Of a stretch of 64,000 nt of DNA, positions 76 to 55,569 are shown in pieces. Source of the stretch: an uncultured Planctomycetaceae bacterium (GTDB lineage: Bacteria > Planctomycetota > Phycisphaerae > SM23-33); contig CAZIAZ010000002.1 of NCBI GenBank assembly GCA_964536835.1, forward strand, positions 4,912-68,911, in the 5' to 3' direction. The translations under genes were made by a program, and so were the position numbers. Positions within the stretch are counted from its first letter, which is position 1; every line of letters starts with the position of its first letter. The notes below the pieces were generated by a model, which did not search any database, was not told where the DNA came from, and saw only the letters and a list, made by a program, of their open reading frames with translations.

Positions 76-630
76 ATGAAAGAATTTCCGCTGGCAAAAG
101 TTTTTCATCTTCTCGAACCAGGGCCGACGGTTCTCGTAACGACTGCGTCAAAGGAGAGCGGCAGCAATATCATGACGATGAGCTGGCACATGATGATGGA
201 ATTCCAGCCGCCGCTCATTGCCTGCGTAGTCAGCCCGTGCAATTACAGTTACGCCGCGCTGCTTTCAACAAAACAGTGCGTAATCGCCATCCCCACGGTA
301 GAGTTAGCCGCCACCGTTGTCGGCATCGGGAATTGCGATGCGCCGGACGTCAACAAGTTCGAGAAATTCAGTTTAACCCCACTGCCAGCCAAAAAGGTCA
401 AAGCCCCACTTATCGCAGAATGCATAGCCAACATCGAATGTAAAGTCACGGACACACGCATGGCCAATAAATACGCCATGTTCATACTGACTGCGGTACA
501 GGCGTGGTTTGACCCAAAACACAAGGAACACCGCATGATTCATCACAACGGTGACGGCACGTTCGAAGTCGATGATAAAAAAACGCTTAACCTGCGAAGA
601 AAAATGACCAAATGGAAAGATATTTCGTAG
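76..630 (+). CDS. flavin reductase-like FMN-binding protein
   Basis: 184-aa ORF with an aaggag Shine-Dalgarno (SD) 7 nt before the ATG. Its size and the SKESGSNIMTMSWH... segment match the flavin reductase-like split-barrel family. Confidence 0.55.
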   Translation: MKEFPLAKVFHLLEPGPTVLVTTASKESGSNIMTMSWHMMMEFQPPLIACVVSPCNYSYAALLSTKQCVIAIPTVELAATVVGIGNCDAPDVNKFEKFSLTPLPAKKVKAPLIAECIANIECKVTDTRMANKYAMFILTAVQAWFDPKHKEHRMIHHNGDGTFEVDDKKTLNLRRKMTKWKDIS

Positions 631-658
631 AACCTATCCCAAAAACATGGGCCTCGCC
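628..658. repeat. Short repeat TAGAACCTATCCCAAAAACATGGGCcTCGCC. It is the left-terminal motif of the interspersed element family, and its TAG is the stop codon of the flavin reductase gene.
   Basis: Near-identical 31-mers occur at 1811..1841 and 42728..42758. A shorter hairpin version occurs at 52352..52387. Confidence 0.6.
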
Positions 659-1810: not shown

Positions 1811-1981
1811 TAGAACCTATCCCAAAAACATGGGCGTCGCCGAAATCGAGCAATTTTGCTGGCTGGCAAGGAAGAAAAATGGCGGCATATTTTTTTAAAA
1901 AAATATTCTGCCGTTTTTCTGACGCCGCCAGGCTGCAAAAGAGCCGATTGCAGGCAGCCAAGGTTTTTGGGATAGATTCTA
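1811..1981. repeat. Complete 171-bp interspersed element with 19-bp terminal inverted repeats (tagaacctatcccaaaaac / gtttttgggatagattcta). It is MITE-like or REP-like and lies in the intergenic space.
   Basis: The reverse complement of 1963-1981 equals 1811-1829 with one mismatch. Its internal sequence matches window positions 1-50. Confidence 0.55.
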
Positions 1982-7499: not shown

Positions 7500-8314
7500 G
7501 ATTTTTGAGTTGCATTGTCATTTTATTCGCCACGCTTTGTGCCTGCGGTTGTAGCGAGCTGGTCGTAATCAAAACCAACCCGTCCGGCGCGGAAATATAT
7601 TGCAACGGCGAACGCGCCGGCGTCAGTCCGTGTAACGTACCGCTGCCGGAAAGCGAAGGCGATATGGTAGGCATGAACGTCATCGAAGCGAGAAAGGATG
7701 GTTATCTGCCGGAATACTATTATCTGTCCGGCAAACCGTCCGATGAAACCGTCGGCCACATTCAAACCTATTCGTTAGCCAGGCCGACCGTAGAAATCGA
7801 ACTCACGAAACTGCCTGAAAATATGACATCCGCTGACGTGCCCGACGTAGTCAAATCTGACTCCGAATCCATGACAGTTCTGCCAGGCGCATACGAAAAC
7901 AGGGCAACCATCGAGGTGCGGGTAGTGCGGGTAAAAGACGGCAGAGTGCTGGGACAGATTTCTCGCTACGAGGACATCGGCAACCCTACCGCCGTCGCAC
8001 AATCCATAGTAGGCGAACTCTGCGAATATCTGCCGCCTGCGGATGACAAGCCGGAAATTCGCGTCGTGCCGCTGAAAAACAGACGCCACAGTGACTTCGG
8101 CAAAAAACTCAGCGAAAATATTTCTGAAGAAATAATGCGGGAAACATGTTTTTCCGGCGGCTATCCAAAAGTTCAGACGCTGGAACTCAATGGCGTGGTA
8201 GACGAGGATAAACTCGACACGCAGGCGACTTTTAACAAAATCAAAAAGAAGGGCCTGCTTTACGGCGTCGATTACGTACTTATGGGCGGCGTAGCCGAAA
8301 GTATTAAACCATAA
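7496..8314 (+). CDS. lipoprotein with a PEGA-like N-terminal domain and an LpoB/CsgG/TolB-N-like C-terminal domain
   Basis: Lipobox LFATLCACGC. The segment VIKTNPSGAEIYCNGERAGVSPCNVPLP is PEGA-like. The C-terminal pattern IRVVPLKNR...GVDYVLMGGV matches the LpoB/CsgG fold signature. Confidence 0.45.
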   Translation: MRFLSCIVILFATLCACGCSELVVIKTNPSGAEIYCNGERAGVSPCNVPLPESEGDMVGMNVIEARKDGYLPEYYYLSGKPSDETVGHIQTYSLARPTVEIELTKLPENMTSADVPDVVKSDSESMTVLPGAYENRATIEVRVVRVKDGRVLGQISRYEDIGNPTAVAQSIVGELCEYLPPADDKPEIRVVPLKNRRHSDFGKKLSENISEEIMRETCFSGGYPKVQTLELNGVVDEDKLDTQATFNKIKKKGLLYGVDYVLMGGVAESIKP

Positions 8315-17937: not shown

Positions 17938-20106
17938 TCATATTGCAGCTTCAATCCCGACGATTTCGTATTCATACACTTCGCCTTCGAAGTCCAGTTC
18001 GATTTTTTCGCCGGCAGCCAGGCCCATTAGGTTCTGAGCCAGTTTCGTCGTGTATGAATAAATCTTTTCGTCCGGATTGCTGTCCCACGGGCCCAGGAAA
18101 GTCATTTCGGTTTCAGCCGCGTTATCAAGCCGCCGTATCATAATTTTCGAGCCTATGCCGACACTATCGCGCGGCACATCGGAACGTTCGAGTACGCGGG
18201 CCATGGCGATTTCAGAGTTTATTTTCCGCACGCGCGATACAAGCATGTCGCGTTCTTCGATAGCTGCCTGCCAGTCGGCATTTTCACGAAGGTCACCCTG
18301 TTCGGCGGCAAGGCCTATCTGCTTGGCGTTCGCCGGCATGAGCACTTCCTTTATATGGTTGAGTTCTTCGCCGCGTGCGTTATAGGCGGCTTGCGTGGTC
18401 CAGATAACGTTTTCATCCAGCCACGGCGCAATTTTCTTTTTCACAAAAAGAGCAAAATGATTTTCGCGGATTTTGCCCATCATGGCTTCATACATGGTGA
18501 TGGCCAGGTTGTGCAGGCGATCTATTTTTGTACGGATGACGCTGGCCATGGCTTCGTCCATGGCATCTATGGTCTCATTGTATATTTTGAATTTGGACGC
18601 AGACAGCGCCGCGCGTATAGCCTGACGACGAGCCTTCTTTTCCTCATTCGGCGCAACGAGCCGGTGGTCGATATCGTTAAGCACTTCCAGCAGTTTTATC
18701 AGTATAGTCGAATGGGACGGCAGATTCGCAATTTCCACGCCAGGTTTGTTCCACAGCCATATTATTATCTGCGTGTGGTCGAGCGGTTCATTCAGGGCAA
18801 CATCGATAGCCCGCTCGGCGGCATCATTACGACCCATCTTTTCAAGGCGACTGACAATATCATCCAGAAGGTCTGCCGGCGAAATAAGCATAAGTCGCTC
18901 AAACTGGTCCGCGGCATCAGGCCTTTGTGCAAGTGCGTCAAAGGCATCTTTCTGCAAGGCGACGTCTTTTATCTGAACTATCATCTCCGCAGCATTTTGG
19001 GATGCCTCTATAAGTTGTTGCGTAGTCGGGCAATTTGTCGGAGCATTGGCGCCAAGCCTGACTGCGTGGTCTATCATCAGAGTAACTTCAAGTGCGTCGG
19101 CCGGACAGTTTTGCGAAAACTGTGTCGCAAGTGCAGCCAACATCGAGATTATATCGTCAACAAAATCAGACTGAACGTCCACGGAACGCTTGGCCGCTTC
19201 AGAATAATATGTTTTGATGAGGTCAAAAAATTCCTTAGGAGCGCGCGCCGCCGTACGAGCCGGTGCAAGCTCATCTTCCAGCGTAAGGGCCTGTTCATGA
19301 AGAACAACGACGGCAGGATTTTTACCTTCTATCGTCAGATTCGCCGATTTGCGTACCGCACTGCGCGCACGCGACCACCAGTTGGACCATTTGTCGTCGG
19401 ATATGATTCCGCCGGTCACAATTTCACGTAGCGTCTCGGTGTCCACCTGCCCGCCGCGGGATTTGCATATCGATACCAGCGCCTTAAGCGGATTTTCGGC
19501 AAATGTATCAGACATGCCCTGCGGATTGACCCGCTTCAGAACACGAAAATCGTCATCGCCGAGAACTTCATATTCGTCGGCAAGTTTTTTGGGATCGAGC
19601 GAACCATCTCCGTCGTCGCCGGTGTATTCGTATTCGTCCATGGCGTTGAGCCGTTCTATACGAATGACGGAGTTGTTATAGCGATTAGCCATATAACTGC
19701 CAGGCTTGACGTCAAGACATGTATCCAGCGTACGAAGGGCCCGTTGCGGACGCTGTTTGCCTTCAAGATCGGCGGCTTTCCAGAGCATGTCGAAATTTTC
19801 CCTGCCGGAATTCACCTTGCGATAAAGTTCCGAGGTGATTTTTCGAAGTTCTTCGCTGGCTGGCACTGCAAGCAGGACGGCCTTTGCGAGGCTGAGCTGT
19901 TTTTCATCCGGCGACTTCTTATGGGCGTCAAGCAGCGCCCAGCCCATTGTTTCAGCCGAGGTTGTCCGGCCAGCCTGCATGAACGCATCCAGCACAAACG
20001 ACGCGAACGTCGGCGAAACGCTGTCCACGATGGCATCCATCCACAAATCTTCGGCGGCACTGTAATCCTTGTCTGCCAGTGCCTGTTTGATTCTTTCTCT
20101 TTTCAT
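17938..20106 (-). CDS. GreA/GreB-family transcription elongation factor with a ~560-aa N-terminal extension (Chlamydia-type 'long GreA')
   Basis: The C-terminal ~160 aa aligns to full-length GreA. It has a coiled-coil part with GDLRENADWQAAIEE, then an FKBP-like domain ending in EYEIVGIE. The N-terminal 560 aa have no recognisable motif. Confidence 0.6.
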   Translation of the reverse strand: MKRERIKQALADKDYSAAEDLWMDAIVDSVSPTFASFVLDAFMQAGRTTSAETMGWALLDAHKKSPDEKQLSLAKAVLLAVPASEELRKITSELYRKVNSGRENFDMLWKAADLEGKQRPQRALRTLDTCLDVKPGSYMANRYNNSVIRIERLNAMDEYEYTGDDGDGSLDPKKLADEYEVLGDDDFRVLKRVNPQGMSDTFAENPLKALVSICKSRGGQVDTETLREIVTGGIISDDKWSNWWSRARSAVRKSANLTIEGKNPAVVVLHEQALTLEDELAPARTAARAPKEFFDLIKTYYSEAAKRSVDVQSDFVDDIISMLAALATQFSQNCPADALEVTLMIDHAVRLGANAPTNCPTTQQLIEASQNAAEMIVQIKDVALQKDAFDALAQRPDAADQFERLMLISPADLLDDIVSRLEKMGRNDAAERAIDVALNEPLDHTQIIIWLWNKPGVEIANLPSHSTILIKLLEVLNDIDHRLVAPNEEKKARRQAIRAALSASKFKIYNETIDAMDEAMASVIRTKIDRLHNLAITMYEAMMGKIRENHFALFVKKKIAPWLDENVIWTTQAAYNARGEELNHIKEVLMPANAKQIGLAAEQGDLRENADWQAAIEERDMLVSRVRKINSEIAMARVLERSDVPRDSVGIGSKIMIRRLDNAAETEMTFLGPWDSNPDEKIYSYTTKLAQNLMGLAAGEKIELDFEGEVYEYEIVGIEAAI

Positions 20107-42727: not shown

Positions 42728-42777
42728 AGAACCTATCCCAAGAACATGGGCGTTGCCATTGGTGGATAGGTGCTATT
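42728..42777. repeat. third copy of the TAGAACCTATCCCAAgAACATGGGCGTtGCC repeat, with a downstream partial inverted partner (ggatagg)
   Basis: Direct comparison with 628..658 and 1811..1841. Confidence 0.55.
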
Positions 42778-50331: not shown

Positions 50332-52002
50332 TTATTTTTCGACGTTTTTAAGCGGCTGGACAGCGTTTTGCGACAATGTTGTTCCAGATGAGTTAGTGAC
50401 CAGGAAATTATCATTCCTGGAGTCGATGATTTTGACCGCCGGCACAGCCTGTTGCAGTTTTTTCAAATATTTCTGTCCGCTGACGAAACACCATATCGGC
50501 CGGCTGGAATTCAGTTCGGCAGTTAGATTTTCAAATGCGGCAGTATCGCGTTTGGATATTACCGGCGCAGTATAATGGCCGGTGTAAAACATGAACGAAA
50601 GATTTTCGTCAGGATAAAGACAGACGTTTGTTGCTGCCTGCGGCAGCAGTTGTGCTTCTCTGCGGGACGAAAGAAACTCCAGACCAGAAGGAACGATATG
50701 CACCAGCATATATAGCTGCAACATTACCACGCATCCCGCCGACCAGTGTATGAATCTGACTCGTCGTTCCGTGCGGATAAACCGTGCCATGCGGAATATC
50801 GCATAGAAAACAATCACGCACGGCACAACGGCAGATAAGTCCAGCCATCTGAATTTCCATTCAAAACCGACGATTACGACAGTCATTACTGCAACGAATT
50901 CCATCAGTGTCCATGCGCCGATTCGCATGAGTTTGTCCGGCTGGCTTGACGCTGACCATCTGCCGACAAATACGCCCAGCATAACCATGAGCGGCGGAAA
51001 TACCGGCAGGATATAGCTGACCAGTTTTGTGTGGCTGAACATGAAAAACAGCAGTGGCATGACCGTCGCCGTCATCAGGAATACGATAATTTTTTCCCGT
51101 CCGGTTTTTCCGAAAAACATCGGCACGTATCTGATAAATGCGCCAGGAATGTACACGCACCACGGCAGGCAGCCGGCGAAAAGTATGGGAATGTATAAAA
51201 TTCCCGGCCATGAATGACCGAGATCTCCGCCGCCGGTGACCCGGCCGAAATTTTCCCTGCCGAAAAACGCCCCAAAATATTCCGGATATTTTATCGATGT
51301 CGCAATGAACCACGGACACGCCACCAGCAGGTAAATCGCCATGCCGGCGGGATTGAAGAATTCAAGTATGCGGCGAAACTGGCGCGTTGCCAGAAGATAC
51401 GTGCCCACGACCATTACCGGCAGCGCCAAACCGGCCGGGCCCTTGAAAAGCGTCGCCACGGCAGCCCAGAAATAGAATCCGCGCCAGCATGAATTGCCTG
51501 CGCGCCTGTCGACAACGGCACACGTCTCCCGCGATGCGAAATAATACATCGCCGCCCACATCGACGTCACGAACGGCATATCCATGCGGTAGTAACGGCC
51601 CATTATCCAGAATTCCATGCACGTCGCGAGCATAATGCCGGCAAGCATGGCTACCGATTTTCTCTCGAATTTCCGTACCAGCTTGTATGCCAGCACAACC
51701 GCAAACGCCGCAAAAATGGCCGACACTAACCGGCCGGCAAATTCACTGTCGTCCGTCAGCCACTGAACGCCAGCCGTCAGCCAATAATACGGCGCAGGTT
51801 TGTTATAATAATTCTTCCCACAGAGCGTCGGCATCAGCCAATTACCCGATTGGAGCATTTCGCTGGTGGTCAATGCGCAGCGGGCTTCTTCCGGCTCGCA
51901 CAAAGGAAAAGACGATATGCCGGGAACATACAAAAGTACGCACAGAAGAATCAGCAATAAAATGTTCCTGCGGTCGCTGTAGAGGTCGTTATTGCTCGTC
52001 AT
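50332..52002 (-). CDS. GT39/GT83-type (ArnT/PMT-like) polyprenyl-phosphate-sugar-dependent glycosyltransferase
   Basis: 556 aa with about 12 TMs. The first periplasmic loop has the acidic motif (PEEARCALTTSEM). The topology follows the ArnT/FlmK/LgmB pattern. Confidence 0.7.
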   Translation of the reverse strand: MTSNNDLYSDRRNILLLILLCVLLYVPGISSFPLCEPEEARCALTTSEMLQSGNWLMPTLCGKNYYNKPAPYYWLTAGVQWLTDDSEFAGRLVSAIFAAFAVVLAYKLVRKFERKSVAMLAGIMLATCMEFWIMGRYYRMDMPFVTSMWAAMYYFASRETCAVVDRRAGNSCWRGFYFWAAVATLFKGPAGLALPVMVVGTYLLATRQFRRILEFFNPAGMAIYLLVACPWFIATSIKYPEYFGAFFGRENFGRVTGGGDLGHSWPGILYIPILFAGCLPWCVYIPGAFIRYVPMFFGKTGREKIIVFLMTATVMPLLFFMFSHTKLVSYILPVFPPLMVMLGVFVGRWSASSQPDKLMRIGAWTLMEFVAVMTVVIVGFEWKFRWLDLSAVVPCVIVFYAIFRMARFIRTERRVRFIHWSAGCVVMLQLYMLVHIVPSGLEFLSSRREAQLLPQAATNVCLYPDENLSFMFYTGHYTAPVISKRDTAAFENLTAELNSSRPIWCFVSGQKYLKKLQQAVPAVKIIDSRNDNFLVTNSSGTTLSQNAVQPLKNVEK

Positions 52003-52321
52003 TTGCGGCGATTTCCTTTTTGGCGGCGGCGCATTTTCTGGGATGAATATGTATGAAATATAGATTGCGCACGTAGATTATCAGATTCAGGCTGAACCCC
52101 GCGATAAAAACCGGATCTTTTCTGTAAATCGAATACGCCAGCAGTATCAGCGTCCCAACCAGCGACAGATACCAGAACGCCAGCGGTATTATTGATTTTT
52201 TCGCTCTTTCCGTGGCAATCCATTGCACAATGAATCGAAGGCCGAAAACCACCTGCCCAAAAAATCCGACAGCCATCCAAATGTCAGCCGCCGATAATTT
52301 TAAAAATATTTTGCCGAACAT
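51989..52321 (-). CDS. lipid-A-disaccharide-synthase N-terminal-like (LAB_N, PF07578-type) small membrane protein
   Basis: FFGQVVFGLRFIVQWIATERAKKSIIPLAFWYLSLVGTLILLAYSIYRKDPVFIAGFSLNLIIYVRNL matches the LAB_N consensus closely. A 14-bp overlap with the GT39 gene. Confidence 0.6.
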   Translation of the reverse strand: MFGKIFLKLSAADIWMAVGFFGQVVFGLRFIVQWIATERAKKSIIPLAFWYLSLVGTLILLAYSIYRKDPVFIAGFSLNLIIYVRNLYFIHIHPRKCAAAKKEIAANDEQ

Positions 52322-52351
52322 CGCTATAAGTCCATTCTTTTAAGATAAACA

Positions 52352-52387
52352 TAGAACCTATCCCAATAATTGTTACAGATAGGTTCT
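52352..52387. repeat. hairpin copy of the tagaacctatccca repeat (agaacctatc / gataggttct) in the divergent promoter region of the glycolipid-modification cluster
   Basis: A 10-bp perfect stem. The same 14-mer heads the repeats at 628, 1811 and 42728. Confidence 0.55.
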
Positions 52388-52445
52388 TTAAAAAGTTCCT
52401 TCTACTGGATACCGCATGGGAATTATTATATAATTTCGGTTTCAT

Positions 52446-53306
52446 ATGGAAACAGGAAAAAAATGTAAAGTCATAATCAACGGCGACGATTTTGGCCTTT
52501 CACGGCGGGTATCGGAAGGGATTATTCATGCCCACAAGTACGGCATTTTGACGTCAGCGACGTTTCAGGCTAACGGCGACGCATCCGAATATGCAGCCTC
52601 ACTGCTGGCGGAAGTTCCGACGCTCGGCGTCGGCGTTCACCTGAACATATCGCAGGGCCGCTGCATCTCCAAAGCCGGCATGAAACTGGCAGATGAAAGC
52701 GGCATGATGAACCACACTGCCGTAGGTATAATCATGCTTCTGCTTAAAAAGCCCAATCTCCTTTCAGCCGTCAGGGAAGAGTTTGACGCTCAAATACGAC
52801 GTGCCGTTGCCATGGGCATTCGGCCGACGCACCTTGACACGCACAGGCACAGCCACGGATTTGGCCCCGTCTGTTCGATAGTGGCAGAGTTGGCGAAAAA
52901 ATACAACATCCCGTTCATTCGTCGTCTTGGCGAACATCTGCCGTGGGTCGGATGGCCAAAAGCGCCGGCCAAACAGAAACACATATCCAATATATTGACT
53001 TTCTTGGGCGATATGAACAAACTGCGTCACTGGAGGTTTTTCAGAACGGCTGGCACGTGGGGCGTGGCGCATACGGGCTGCATTACACGCGAGTGGCTGT
53101 TGACTGCCGCCGGCGCACTTGTAAAAGTCTGTCCATGTAAAACCATTGAAATCATGACTCATCCAGGGTACTGCGATGATTTGGACGAATCGGTAACGAG
53201 ACTTATCGAAAGTCGGCAGATTGAACTCGCCGCACTTTGCGACGACGACGTGCGAAAGGCGTTCGATGCAAACGGGATTGAACGGATAAATTATGGAAAC
53301 CTCTAA
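52446..53306 (+). CDS. YdjC/ChbG/HpnK/NaxD-family carbohydrate de-N-acetylase
   Basis: N-terminal VIINGDDFGLSRRVSEGIIHAHKYGILTSATFQANG, with the conserved metal-binding Asp and His. 286 aa. Confidence 0.7.
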   Translation: METGKKCKVIINGDDFGLSRRVSEGIIHAHKYGILTSATFQANGDASEYAASLLAEVPTLGVGVHLNISQGRCISKAGMKLADESGMMNHTAVGIIMLLLKKPNLLSAVREEFDAQIRRAVAMGIRPTHLDTHRHSHGFGPVCSIVAELAKKYNIPFIRRLGEHLPWVGWPKAPAKQKHISNILTFLGDMNKLRHWRFFRTAGTWGVAHTGCITREWLLTAAGALVKVCPCKTIEIMTHPGYCDDLDESVTRLIESRQIELAALCDDDVRKAFDANGIERINYGNL

Positions 53307-54279
53307 AAAAATAACATACAGCATTGTCGTCCCGTTCTATAACGAGCAGGACATAATCGAAAAACTTCATGACCGCCTTGTAAAGGTCATGGATAGCGTG
53401 GGCGGCGAATATGAGCTTGTATATGTCAACGACGGCAGTCGTGACGATACGCCAGCCATATTGGAGAAAATCGCCACAGCCAATCCGCGTGTGGTTTTTG
53501 TAGACCTGCGGCGCAACTTTGGCCAGACTACGGGGCTGATGGCCGGTTTCGATGTGGCTGGCGGTGAAATAATCATCTCAATGGATGGCGACTTGCAGCA
53601 CGACCCGTATGAAATTCCGATGTTCATTGAAAAAATTCGCGAAGGTTACGACATAGCCAGCGGCTGGCGCATCCGTCGCGGCGACAACTTCGTCATGCGC
53701 CGTCTGCCGTCCAAAATTGCCAACCGGCTGCTCGCCGCCGTCAGCGGCGTGGCGCTGCATGATTTCGGCACGACATTCAAAGCCTATCGCCGTGAAGTTC
53801 TTGAAGATGTCCGACTTTACGGCGACATGCACCGGTTTGTTCCGGCGGTCTGCCAACGGCTCGGCGCCAGAATCTGCGAAGTGCCCATAAAAAATGTCCG
53901 CAGGGCAGCTGGCAAAAGCAATTACGGCATTGGCAGAACATTCCGTGTTGCGTTGGACATAATCACGCTAAAATTCATCACCGGTTACCTCACGAGGCCT
54001 ATGCACTTTTTCGGCCGCTGGGGCATGGCCAGTTTCGCCTTTGGCCTTTTAATACTTTTTTATGGCTTTTTAAGGAAGATTTTTGCGTGGAACGAGTTCC
54101 GGCTTTTCGAAGAGCATGGGCCGCTGATGGCATTGGGATTTCTTCTGCTGATAGTGGGCATGTTCTTTCTCTCGACCGGCCTCATAGGCGAGATGCTCAT
54201 GCGAATCTATTTTGAAAGTACCAACGCCCGAACTTACGCCGTCAAACGTATCTTCCGGAACGCCAGGCAGGAAAAATGA
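53293..54279 (+). CDS. GT2 polyprenyl-phosphate glycosyltransferase (ArnC/FlmF2/LgmA/DPM1-like)
   Basis: YSIVVPFYNEQD ... VYVNDGSRDDT (the DXD region) is followed by two C-terminal TM helices. A 14-bp overlap with the deacetylase gene. Confidence 0.75.
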   Translation: METSKKITYSIVVPFYNEQDIIEKLHDRLVKVMDSVGGEYELVYVNDGSRDDTPAILEKIATANPRVVFVDLRRNFGQTTGLMAGFDVAGGEIIISMDGDLQHDPYEIPMFIEKIREGYDIASGWRIRRGDNFVMRRLPSKIANRLLAAVSGVALHDFGTTFKAYRREVLEDVRLYGDMHRFVPAVCQRLGARICEVPIKNVRRAAGKSNYGIGRTFRVALDIITLKFITGYLTRPMHFFGRWGMASFAFGLLILFYGFLRKIFAWNEFRLFEEHGPLMALGFLLLIVGMFFLSTGLIGEMLMRIYFESTNARTYAVKRIFRNARQEK

Positions 54280-54351
54280 TTTTCCAATGCGGCCAACCGT
54301 TATTCTCGACGCACACGACTGTGGCCTATTTTTTAAGATGTAAGAATTTTT

Positions 54352-55569
54352 TTGAAGACTTTGATGCGTTTATCATTAAAAGATTTGCAATATCTTGTAA
54401 GCGGTGCGGCGGATGAGTTTTTGACGGCCGACTTGCCGGCTGACCCGCTGTCATTACAAAAGGCGCTGCGCAAATGCGTTGGGCCGGATGAAGCGATGGC
54501 AATCGACCAGCTCCGCCGCGTCCGTAAAAAAGCTGCTGCCAAGATGCCTCTGCCACAAGCCGAAAAAATGCTCGCCGATGACACCATGATTCAGCAGGCG
54601 TCATCGCTAGCCATTGCGGCGTATAAGGGCCAAAAAATACTCCAGCGATGGCCTGACGTGCGGCATGTGCTGGATTTATGCTGCGGCTGCGGCTTGGACG
54701 CAATAGGGTTGGCGAAGTGCGGATTGACTGTCGATGGCTATGATGAATCGTCGGCTGCGGTTTTTTGCGCATCATATAACGCTGCCGTTTGCGGCTGTGA
54801 AAAATGTTGCACGTTCCATAATGCCGACGTGACTTTGTTAAAAAATTTTTCAGCCGGCAGTGTTGTGCATTTAGATCCCGACCGCCGCGTTACCGGCCGC
54901 CGCAGCGCATCGTTAGCCGATTATTCGCCAGGCCCGCGATTTGTGGAAGAACTTATACGCCAGCCAGGCCTGCGGGGCGTCATCAAGCTCTCGCCCGCCA
55001 TGCCGAAAGACGAACTGGCGGCTCTCTGTATGCCGCTGGATATAGAGTACGTCAGCACACATAACACCTGTCGCCAACTGCTTGCGTGGTTTCCAGCCGT
55101 CGGCGAAGGAAGCCGTCTTGCAACTGTTATCCGCGGTGAATATCCCGATTATCGCGTCGATTCGGTATTCGCCGCAGCCGGGCCGGCTGCATACGGCGCT
55201 GCGGCTGGTAAATATCTCATAGAACCCGATGCCGCCGTACTCGCAGCAGGCGCAGAAAGCGCCCTTGCGATGAAATTATCGGCATGGAAACTTGCACCAG
55301 GATTGGTGTGGTTATTTGCCGACAAAAAACCGGCGACTGATACGGCTGGCCAGATTTTTGAAATTATTCAATCCGTGCCAGGCCGACTGGACGACATAAA
55401 AAAGGCGCTGAAAAATCTCAACGCCGGCAATGTAGAACTCAAAACCCGCGGCGTGGATTTGAATGCGGACAAGGTTCAGCGGCAGCTTCACGGAAAAGGA
55501 ACTCAACCACTGACCGTTCTGTGGGGCAGAGTCGGCCTGAACCAGCTCGCGTTTATCGCAAAACGCTGA
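54352..55569 (+). CDS. putative class I SAM-dependent methyltransferase
   Basis: Motif-I-like VLDLCCGCGLDAIGLA. 405 aa. Otherwise unassigned. Confidence 0.35.
   Translation: MKTLMRLSLKDLQYLVSGAADEFLTADLPADPLSLQKALRKCVGPDEAMAIDQLRRVRKKAAAKMPLPQAEKMLADDTMIQQASSLAIAAYKGQKILQRWPDVRHVLDLCCGCGLDAIGLAKCGLTVDGYDESSAAVFCASYNAAVCGCEKCCTFHNADVTLLKNFSAGSVVHLDPDRRVTGRRSASLADYSPGPRFVEELIRQPGLRGVIKLSPAMPKDELAALCMPLDIEYVSTHNTCRQLLAWFPAVGEGSRLATVIRGEYPDYRVDSVFAAAGPAAYGAAAGKYLIEPDAAVLAAGAESALAMKLSAWKLAPGLVWLFADKKPATDTAGQIFEIIQSVPGRLDDIKKALKNLNAGNVELKTRGVDLNADKVQRQLHGKGTQPLTVLWGRVGLNQLAFIAKR

Follow-up and report, generated by a model that had tools for sequence, protein, structure and literature searches.

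The locus and its genes

The stretch of DNA analysed here, referred to below as the window, comprises 64,000 nucleotides (nt) from a metagenome-assembled genome (MAG) of an uncultured member of the Phycisphaerae (Planctomycetota; assembly GCA_964536835.1, contig CAZIAZ010000002.1, positions 4,912 to 68,911). It contains four adjacent genes that probably constitute a single envelope-glycosylation module of the type represented by the Lgm proteins of Bordetella and by FlmF2, NaxD and FlmK of Francisella. An earlier reading based on the sequence alone (the sequence-only reading) had proposed such a module, followed by a methyltransferase gene, in a host of the Planctomycetes-Verrucomicrobia-Chlamydiae type. 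All five open reading frames (ORFs) exist where it placed them, the Pfam families it assigned to the four module proteins are confirmed, and the host, a Phycisphaerae MAG, is of the type it had supposed.

The four genes form two pairs that diverge from a spacer of 124 nt, and within each pair the genes overlap by 14 nt. The pair on the reverse strand encodes a membrane glycosyltransferase of the GT-C (glycosyltransferase fold C) type, which belongs to the ArnT family (50332..52002; 556 amino acids (aa); Pfam PMT_2, E 1.5e-16, and PMT, E 5e-16), and a small membrane protein of the LAB_N family (51989..52321; 110 aa; Pfam LAB_N, E 4e-31). The pair on the forward strand encodes a de-N-acetylase of the YdjC family (52446..53306; 286 aa; Pfam YdjC, E 3e-51, spanning positions 1-265 of the 266 in the profile) and a polyprenyl-phosphate glycosyltransferase of family 2 (GT2) and of the ArnC/GtrB type (53293..54279; 328 aa; Pfam Glycos_transf_2, E 3e-33). 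No second GT-C, GT2, YdjC or LAB_N gene was found in the window.

The arrangement is not peculiar to one assembly. An identical YdjC protein is encoded on seven contigs of public assemblies, including GCA_035403485.1, and in the five places inspected, which represent independent assemblies of the same organism, the gene order is that of the window wherever the contig reaches far enough. In a relative whose proteins are 74-86% identical, the genes for GT-C, LAB_N and YdjC are arranged as in the window; another ORF begins in overlap with the end of the YdjC gene, and the contig breaks off just past its start.

The YdjC and GT2 proteins

The GT2 protein matches solved polyprenyl-phosphate glycosyltransferases over its full length, namely the ArnC structures 9hwj, 9bhc and 8vxh (E 5e-49 to 3e-44) and GtrB (5ekp; E 4e-31). 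A DGD motif occupies residues 98-100, and the C-terminus holds two transmembrane (TM) helices, which are covered by the alignment with ArnC and GtrB. Its best NCBIfam match is PgfS (183 bits; cut-off 500), together with ArnC (177 bits; cut-off 529), and the single hopanoid-linked match is a marginal one to HpnB (E 0.002). The protein is therefore best regarded as a putative synthase of undecaprenyl-phosphate-linked N-acetylhexosamine (Und-P-HexNAc). Its nucleotide-sugar specificity is not readable from the sequence, and N-acetylhexosamine (HexNAc) is proposed as its sugar solely because the YdjC gene is coupled to the gene for the GT2.

The YdjC protein has no TM segment by hydropathy. Five Asp and His residues (D14, D15, H65, H129 and H133) are invariant among 17 relatives in the family alignment, and the nearest solved structures are EF_3048 (2i5i) and a chitooligosaccharide deacetylase (7vi8). 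The match to the NCBIfam model of ChbG (NF002559; 145 bits, cut-off 227) is good only at residues 7-157, and that to HpnK (TIGR03473) reaches 123 bits. An identity with the hopanoid deacetylase HpnK was rejected because of this score, which lies below the cut-off of 232.6 bits, and the lack of hopanoid genes nearby; an identity with the chitobiose deacetylase ChbG was likewise rejected because of the score and a context of membrane glycosyltransferases in place of chb or phosphotransferase system (PTS) genes. A tblastn search of plasmids with the YdjC protein matched only chbG, hpnK and Gram-positive deacetylases, and no proteobacterial loci resembling lgmC were found among them; the plasmid-borne hpnK and chbG products are 24-37% identical to the YdjC protein and occur in other gene contexts. 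The family and the partner of the enzyme suggest that it would convert Und-P-HexNAc to undecaprenyl-phosphate-linked hexosamine (Und-P-HexN).

The GT-C protein belongs to the ArnT family

Each of the searches with the GT-C protein led to ArnT. Its sole NCBIfam match is ArnT (NF009784; 189 bits, E 1e-55, residues 11-438), and the sole match of the single sequence in the Protein Data Bank (PDB) is ArnT of Cupriavidus metallidurans (5ezm; E 2e-25). A family profile built from 28 members found the same structure at E 1.3e-54 and, among PDB structures at E<=1, no protein O-mannosyltransferase (PMT) or other GT-C. An assignment to the PMTs, that is, to GT39 in the strict sense, was rejected on these grounds, as the profile matches ArnT only. 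The label GT39 used in the sequence-only reading survives as a label of Pfam and of annotations, whose PMT and PMT_2 models span both ArnT-type and PMT-type enzymes; the protein itself is better named a member of the ArnT family, and the grouping with ArnT rather than with the PMTs that the same reading expected is borne out. With a score far from the equivalog cut-off of the ArnT model (567 bits), it is a family member and not an equivalog of the transferase for 4-amino-4-deoxy-L-arabinose (L-Ara4N).

By hydropathy, the protein crosses the membrane in at least 11 segments, and about 110 aa at its C-terminus form a soluble region. The ArnT residues D55/E56, R58, K85, D158, R270 and Y345, which we take to be catalytic or to bind the phosphate of Und-P (roles reportedly described by Petrou et al. 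in 2016), correspond to E38/E39, R41, K68, D141, R254 and Y330 of the window protein, which are conserved both in the alignment with 5ezm and in an alignment of 121 sequences. The same positions are invariant or nearly so in the 34 closest members of the GT-C family. The enzyme may therefore be expected, from its relatives and conserved residues, to transfer hexosamine (HexN) from Und-P-HexN to a periplasmic acceptor.

LAB_N as a possible half-transporter

The LAB_N protein is modelled by AlphaFold2 (pLDDT, the predicted local distance difference test, 69) as a bundle of three TM helices at residues 11-40, 47-67 and 70-92. The top 15 matches of this model in a fold search of the PDB are all SemiSWEETs, with a probability of about 1, target-normalised TM-scores (template modelling scores) of 0.54-0.79 and marginal E-values of 0.03-0.7. 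The best match of a LAB_N profile to PDB sequences is also a SemiSWEET (4x5m), over the full length and weak at E 0.057, and in this alignment the invariant Q33 of LAB_N falls on the Gln of the PQ motif; the sequence identity between LAB_N and SemiSWEETs is about 18-25%.

A tblastn search of annotated plasmids and chromids identified LAB_N genes in 19 records, eight of which were inspected for their contexts; these belong to Alphaproteobacteria, Fusobacteriota, Aeromonas, Bacteroidota and one Paenibacillus. A GT2 gene, an ArnT-type GT-C gene, or both lie within 4 kb of LAB_N in all eight. The order is GT2-LAB_N-GT-C in Azospirillum, Thalassospira, Aeromonas and Pelagovum, GT2-LAB_N-GT-C-GT-C in Ilyobacter, and LAB_N-GT-C-GT2 in Paracoccus. 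The Gram-positive Paenibacillus has the pair GT2-LAB_N only, and in Hymenobacter two LAB_N genes stand in tandem, 3.6 kb from a GT39 gene. A LAB_N protein, which the sequence-only reading had regarded as unusual for such gene sets, thus turns out to be a regular companion of these enzymes in several phyla.

The triads of GT2, LAB_N and GT-C in Paracoccus, Azospirillum, Ilyobacter, Thalassospira, Aeromonas and Pelagovum (loci L091-L094, L101 and L102) appear to represent an uncharacterised module. Their LAB_N genes adjoin or overlap those of the GT2 and the ArnT-type GT-C, as in the window, and a two-component system is annotated beside the triad in Paracoccus, Ilyobacter and Thalassospira. The GT2 proteins in the LAB_N contexts are short by annotated gene length (about 240-270 aa, versus 328 aa in the window), and a YdjC gene was found in none of the eight contexts, which suggests that the sugar of the triads is probably not an amino sugar. 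Within the triads, LAB_N could serve either as the membrane part of the GT2 or as its flippase. The tandem LAB_N pair on the plasmid of Hymenobacter sp. HDW8 (L100, 3608-4276) adjoins a two-component system. That two LAB_N genes stand in tandem is suggestive of dimeric action, as in SemiSWEETs and in ArnE/F.

The PQ-loop family unites SWEETs, MPDU1, cystinosin and the KDEL receptor (Saudek 2012, PMC3281891), and MPDU1 is required for all glycosylations that depend on dolichyl-phosphate-linked (Dol-P-linked) monosaccharides (PMC3281891). LAB_N shares the three-helix bundle with SemiSWEETs and MPDU1, as judged from the model, and its genomic link to enzymes that handle sugars linked to undecaprenyl phosphate (Und-P) parallels the dependence of MPDU1-requiring reactions on Dol-P-monosaccharides; the cargo of SemiSWEETs, by contrast, consists of free sugars and not of lipid-linked ones. 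In the literature searched, no paper was found that links LAB_N to SemiSWEETs or PQ-loop proteins. The individual lines of evidence are marginal, yet they agree. They suggest that LAB_N could be a SemiSWEET-like half-transporter that either flips the Und-P-linked sugar or partners the GT2 in the membrane. A broader proposal must be put more tentatively, and we consider it possible but rather doubtful: LAB_N proteins would be dimerising half-transporters of the SemiSWEET fold that translocate or present Und-P-monosaccharides (here Und-P-HexN), a bacterial counterpart of MPDU1 and an unrecognised family of carrier-lipid flippases that serves GT2/GT-C modules in at least five phyla.

Conservation of the module in relatives

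A scan of species-representative genomes with the YdjC alignment yielded 80 loci, none of them from Bordetella or Francisella, which were then searched by tblastn with the window proteins and with hidden Markov models built from the homologues. Just over half of the loci (41 of the 80) fall into a Planctomycetota-type clade with YdjC proteins 36-53% identical to that of the window, and 24 of these have at least 3.5 kb of sequence on both sides. In all 24 well-flanked relatives a GT2 gene lies directly downstream of the YdjC gene, and its product is 60-75% identical to the window GT2, which exceeds the identity of YdjC itself. LAB_N accompanies YdjC and GT2 in 14 of the 24, with divergent orientation in 12 of the 14; an ArnT-type GT-C is encoded within 4 kb of YdjC in 12 of the 24, and all four genes are present in eight. 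The module is widespread in the Phycisphaerae clade to which the window belongs. Co-conservation of the genes, which the sequence-only reading had implied, holds throughout for YdjC and GT2; for LAB_N and GT-C it extends to only about half of the relatives, with varying gene order.

The neighbouring GT-C proteins fall into two classes. Class A, which resembles the window protein (at least 490 bits), adjoins YdjC and GT2 in three loci with the co-directional orders GT-C-YdjC-GT2-LAB_N (L045), YdjC-GT2-GT-C (L016) and GT-C-YdjC-GT2 (L049). That the linkage recurs in different gene orders is a good argument for a functional connection. The proteins of class B, of about 650-700 aa, are more divergent and occur in nine loci, for example at L009 5521-7554, L021 6920-8860 and L044 1371-3404 and in six further loci. 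Class B thus adjoins LAB_N, YdjC and GT2 in Planctomycetota more often than the GT-C type of the window itself does. ArnT is the top NCBIfam match of the scanned representatives of both classes, with at most one, far weaker, second match; the scores of class B to the ArnT model are only 38-48 bits.

Three of the loci deserve separate mention. The MAGs that contain L016 and L049 are labelled "Proteobacteria bacterium" and "Actinomycetota bacterium", respectively, and their proteins are close to the Phycisphaerae versions (YdjC 45-52%, GT2 60-66% and GT-C 35-39% identity); the discrepancy between label and content could reflect mis-binning or horizontal transfer. At L043, the complete YdjC-GT2 pair is preceded, 2 kb upstream, by a second, partial copy of YdjC (7624-8124; 49% identity over residues 1-166), and LAB_N and a GT-C fragment are found 8.5 kb away, which looks like a local rearrangement of the module.

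Outside the Planctomycetota-type clade, the YdjC proteins of Acidobacteriota and Gemmatimonadota (about 30% identity) mostly have no clear GT2 neighbour. For those of Campylobacterales, Alphaproteobacteria, Elusimicrobiota, Omnitrophota and a Dehalococcoidia MAG, a GT2 (about 25-29% identical) is encoded adjacently or within a few kb, and two alphaproteobacterial loci (L077 and L085) show the order weak GT-C, GT2, YdjC. Such neighbours in other phyla indicate that this type of module is not confined to a single phylum.

A putative pathway for amino-sugar transfer and its alternatives

From the family assignments, the conserved residues, the modelled fold of LAB_N and the synteny, we infer the following pathway, including its sugar, the direction in which each step runs, the part played by LAB_N, the acceptor and the phenotype. 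The ArnC/GtrB-type GT2 would act at the cytoplasmic face of the inner membrane and move an N-acetylhexosamine from a UDP-sugar to undecaprenyl phosphate. The soluble YdjC protein, translationally coupled to the GT2, would then strip the acetyl group, yielding Und-P-HexN with a free amine. The lipid-linked amino sugar would have to reach the periplasmic face, for which the SemiSWEET-like LAB_N, probably as a dimer, is the candidate, unless LAB_N acts as the membrane partner of the GT2. Finally, the ArnT-family GT-C would move the hexosamine to an acceptor in the periplasm. ArnT, LgmB and FlmK suggest, by analogy, a lipid A phosphate as the likeliest acceptor, and its modification would lower the negative charge of the cell surface. 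As a claim of its own, lipid A as acceptor is a candidate that falls somewhat short of an even chance.

The chemistry of the planctomycetal cell envelope is barely characterised, and a literature search turned up no paper whose title or abstract mentions Planctomycetes, lipid A and ArnT. If a cationic hexosamine is indeed placed on lipid A, the locus would be the first indication of a charge-masking lipid A modification in Phycisphaerae, and an intrinsic tolerance to cationic peptides and polymyxins would be predicted. An outer membrane would be in keeping with two other genes of the window, one for an OmpA-family protein and one for a putative porin. The SemiSWEET-like fold of LAB_N and its recurrence beside polyprenyl-phosphate glycosyltransferases and ArnT-type transferases make it a testable candidate for the transfer of Und-P-monosaccharides to the periplasmic face. 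For this step, assignments beyond ArnE/F and GtrA are poor, and it has a parallel in the unresolved role of MPDU1 in eukaryotes.

Several observations weigh against this pathway. None of the matches reaches an NCBIfam equivalog cut-off (ArnT 189/567, ArnC 177/529, ChbG 145/227 and HpnK 123/233 bits); with scores so far below, substrate and acceptor are not transferable from those enzymes, secure as the families are. The comparison with NaxD, LgmA-D and FlmK was made by family type and published description rather than by sequence. In the GT-C, the position of ArnT Y59 is occupied by Cys in 31 of the 34 closest family members, and the zinc-site positions of ArnT also differ: E84 is replaced by Asp or Asn, H265 mostly by Arg, and H267 always by Asn. 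Half of the well-flanked relatives (12 of 24) encode no GT-C within 4 kb of YdjC, and where one is present it is usually of class B, which implies that the enzyme on the acceptor side is interchangeable. Moreover, three class A orthologues (P0249, P0265 and P0268; 36-41% identity) are located on long contigs away from YdjC and LAB_N, so that the link to the GT-C is looser than that between YdjC and GT2. Lastly, no gene of lipid A biosynthesis was found among the other large ORFs of the window that were scanned.

The serious rival retains the same donor route through Und-P-HexNAc, Und-P-HexN and the GT-C, and directs the sugar to an acceptor other than lipid A, such as the core or O-chain of lipopolysaccharide, peptidoglycan, a surface protein or another glycolipid. 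Routes of a comparable kind are those of mycobacterial PpgS/Rv3779, which places galactosamine (GalN) on arabinogalactan, and of CsbB/GtcA/YfhO, which glycosylate teichoic acids. The variation of the partner GT-C (class A in three loci versus class B in nine), the Cys at the Y59 position of class A and its lack of the ArnT zinc-site residues would all fit such an acceptor, as would the GT2-LAB_N pair of the Gram-positive Paenibacillus, which has no lipid A, and the best NCBIfam match of the GT2, the glycosyltransferase PgfS, presumably a part of a streptococcal protein-glycosylation system. However, ArnT is the sole characterised relative detected by the sequence or the family profile of the GT-C, and all experimentally defined systems known to us that combine YdjC, GT2 and an ArnT-type transferase modify lipid A. 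An acceptor other than lipid A is rather unlikely.

The GT-C might also be a mere neighbour that uses a different donor, in which case YdjC and GT2, with or without LAB_N, would be self-contained and provide lipid-linked HexN for another use. The unlinked class A orthologues and the relatives that lack a nearby GT-C speak for this possibility, and because the window holds no second GT2 or GT-C, the linkage has no internal contrast. Nevertheless, we regard it as improbable: class A genes stand tightly and co-directionally beside YdjC and GT2 in three loci of differing order, the window GT-C gene overlaps that of LAB_N, and LAB_N is itself tied to YdjC and GT2 in 14 of 24 relatives; furthermore, a lipid-linked monosaccharide would have no obvious purpose without a transferase that uses it. 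A function of YdjC outside any carrier-lipid pathway, either HpnK-like in the formation of bacteriohopanetetrol-glucosamine together with the GT2 or ChbG-like in the catabolism of chitin oligosaccharides, is extremely improbable, because the top NCBIfam matches (ChbG, HpnK) and the nearby structure 7vi8 that suggest it are outweighed by scores far below both cut-offs, a GT2 of the ArnC/GtrB type with C-terminal TM helices and only a marginal match to HpnB, the lack of hopanoid, PTS or chitobiose genes nearby, and the low identity and different contexts of plasmid-borne hpnK and chbG. The proposal that the four genes act together in the transfer of an amino sugar to an envelope acceptor therefore remains the probable one.

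Spacer elements and flanking genes

The spacer between the two gene pairs contains an inverted repeat (52353..52387, without strand) that could form a hairpin with perfect 10-nt arms (52353-52362 and 52378-52387) and a 15-nt loop. The left arm, which repeats the window-wide motif TTGGGATAGGTTCTA, is situated 31 nt before the start codon of LAB_N. The 10-nt core of the arm motif occurs at 10 sites in the window versus 1.8 expected, a number reached in no shuffle. A longer interspersed motif with the consensus (GCCCATG)TTTTTGGGATAGGTTCTA is found five times in the window, as a copy or near-copy, namely at 629-640(-), 1812-1823(-), 1969-1980(+), 42728-42739(-) and 52353-52364(-), and a related site is found at 42765-42774(+). 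Four of the five long copies precede a start codon by 27-37 nt, namely those of a URO-D-like gene, an AraC-type regulator, a 141-aa ORF and LAB_N. This placement suggests that the motif acts as a promoter or operator and is not a mobile repeat.

The hairpin with its repeat copy, noted already in the sequence-only reading, is real and its motif over-represented, but it is absent from the relative with 86% identity (L098), whose spacer is 45 nt shorter. A role as a conserved operator or control element of the module was rejected for this reason, and the hairpin is probably not a core part of it. The spacer also holds a promoter-like site upstream of YdjC-GT2 (TGGATA, a 17-nt spacer and TATAAT; 52406..52434(+)), which is defined by consensus match only (10 of 12 positions). 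The block CTGGATACCGCATGGG..TTATTATATAAT at this site is conserved in L098. The conserved -10 hexamer ends 11 nt before the annotated start codon of YdjC (window 52406-52446), so that the transcript would have a very short leader or none at all, unless the start differs from the predicted one.

The ORF that follows the set (54352..55569(+); 405 aa) combines a THUMP-like C-terminus with a class I methyltransferase domain according to Pfam and looks like an RNA methyltransferase. The gene does follow the module, as had been pointed out, but this adjacency is limited to assemblies of the organism from which the window comes; membership of the gene in the module was rejected on this basis. The neighbourhood of the module otherwise consists of housekeeping genes, including those for GroEL, GyrB, P-II, Amt and a sigma-54 activator. 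Elsewhere in the window, a 722-aa ORF (17938-20106(-)) has its GreA/GreB domains confined to residues 568-719, and Pfam matches nothing in its N-terminal extension, which spans about 560 aa.

Comparison with known systems

The likeness to the Lgm and Flm/NaxD systems that the sequence-only reading had proposed holds in its core at the level of protein families; sugar and acceptor are assigned by analogy. The lgm genes of Bordetella, which serve to place glucosamine on the phosphates of lipid A, are clustered like those of the window and comprise a GT2 (LgmA), a GT-C (LgmB), a deacetylase (LgmC) and a fourth gene (LgmD), where we take LgmA to be an ArnC-like GT2 and LgmC to be the deacetylase. 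By contrast, the Bordetella genes form a single operon under the control of Bvg, whereas those of the window form two divergent pairs and have no adjacent two-component system. LgmA, LgmB and LgmC are needed for the presence of glucosamine on Bordetella lipid A (PMC4993483), and LgmB has been described as an ArnT-type glycosyltransferase (PMC5454989). The cluster lgmABCD corresponds to BP0399-BP0396, with lgmD (BP0396) as a non-essential fourth gene (PMC4993483, PMC9858536).

The modification of lipid A in Francisella follows the same logic, with a GT2, a YdjC-superfamily deacetylase and an ArnT-like transferase (PMC2233673, PMC11279074). Both flmF2 and flmK are required for the addition of GalN (PMC2233673), which is preceded by the deacetylation of undecaprenyl-phosphate-linked N-acetylgalactosamine by NaxD, a member of the YdjC superfamily (reviewed in PMC11279074). 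A naxD gene acts not only in Francisella but also in Acinetobacter baumannii, and FlmK differs from the role proposed for the window GT-C in that it additionally transfers mannose. To our knowledge, the flm and nax genes of Francisella are not gathered in a compact cluster, and none of them has been described as having a LAB_N partner.

Among solved structures, those nearest to the window GT2 and GT-C are ArnC and ArnT of the enterobacterial Arn pathway, which places L-Ara4N on lipid A. The de-acylase of the window belongs to the YdjC family, whereas Arn employs ArnD with its polysaccharide-deacetylase fold; the candidate flippase is a SemiSWEET-like LAB_N in place of the ArnE/F proteins of the small multidrug resistance type; the set includes neither an arnA nor an arnB gene; and the GT2 and GT-C score far below the respective equivalog cut-offs, with the zinc-site residues of ArnT not conserved. 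The proposed sequence of events matches that of Arn in all four steps, that is, the loading of an N-acylated amino sugar onto Und-P, its deacylation, its flipping and its transfer. The type of pathway is thus already known, and the gene set of Phycisphaerae would represent a new, uncharacterised member of it.

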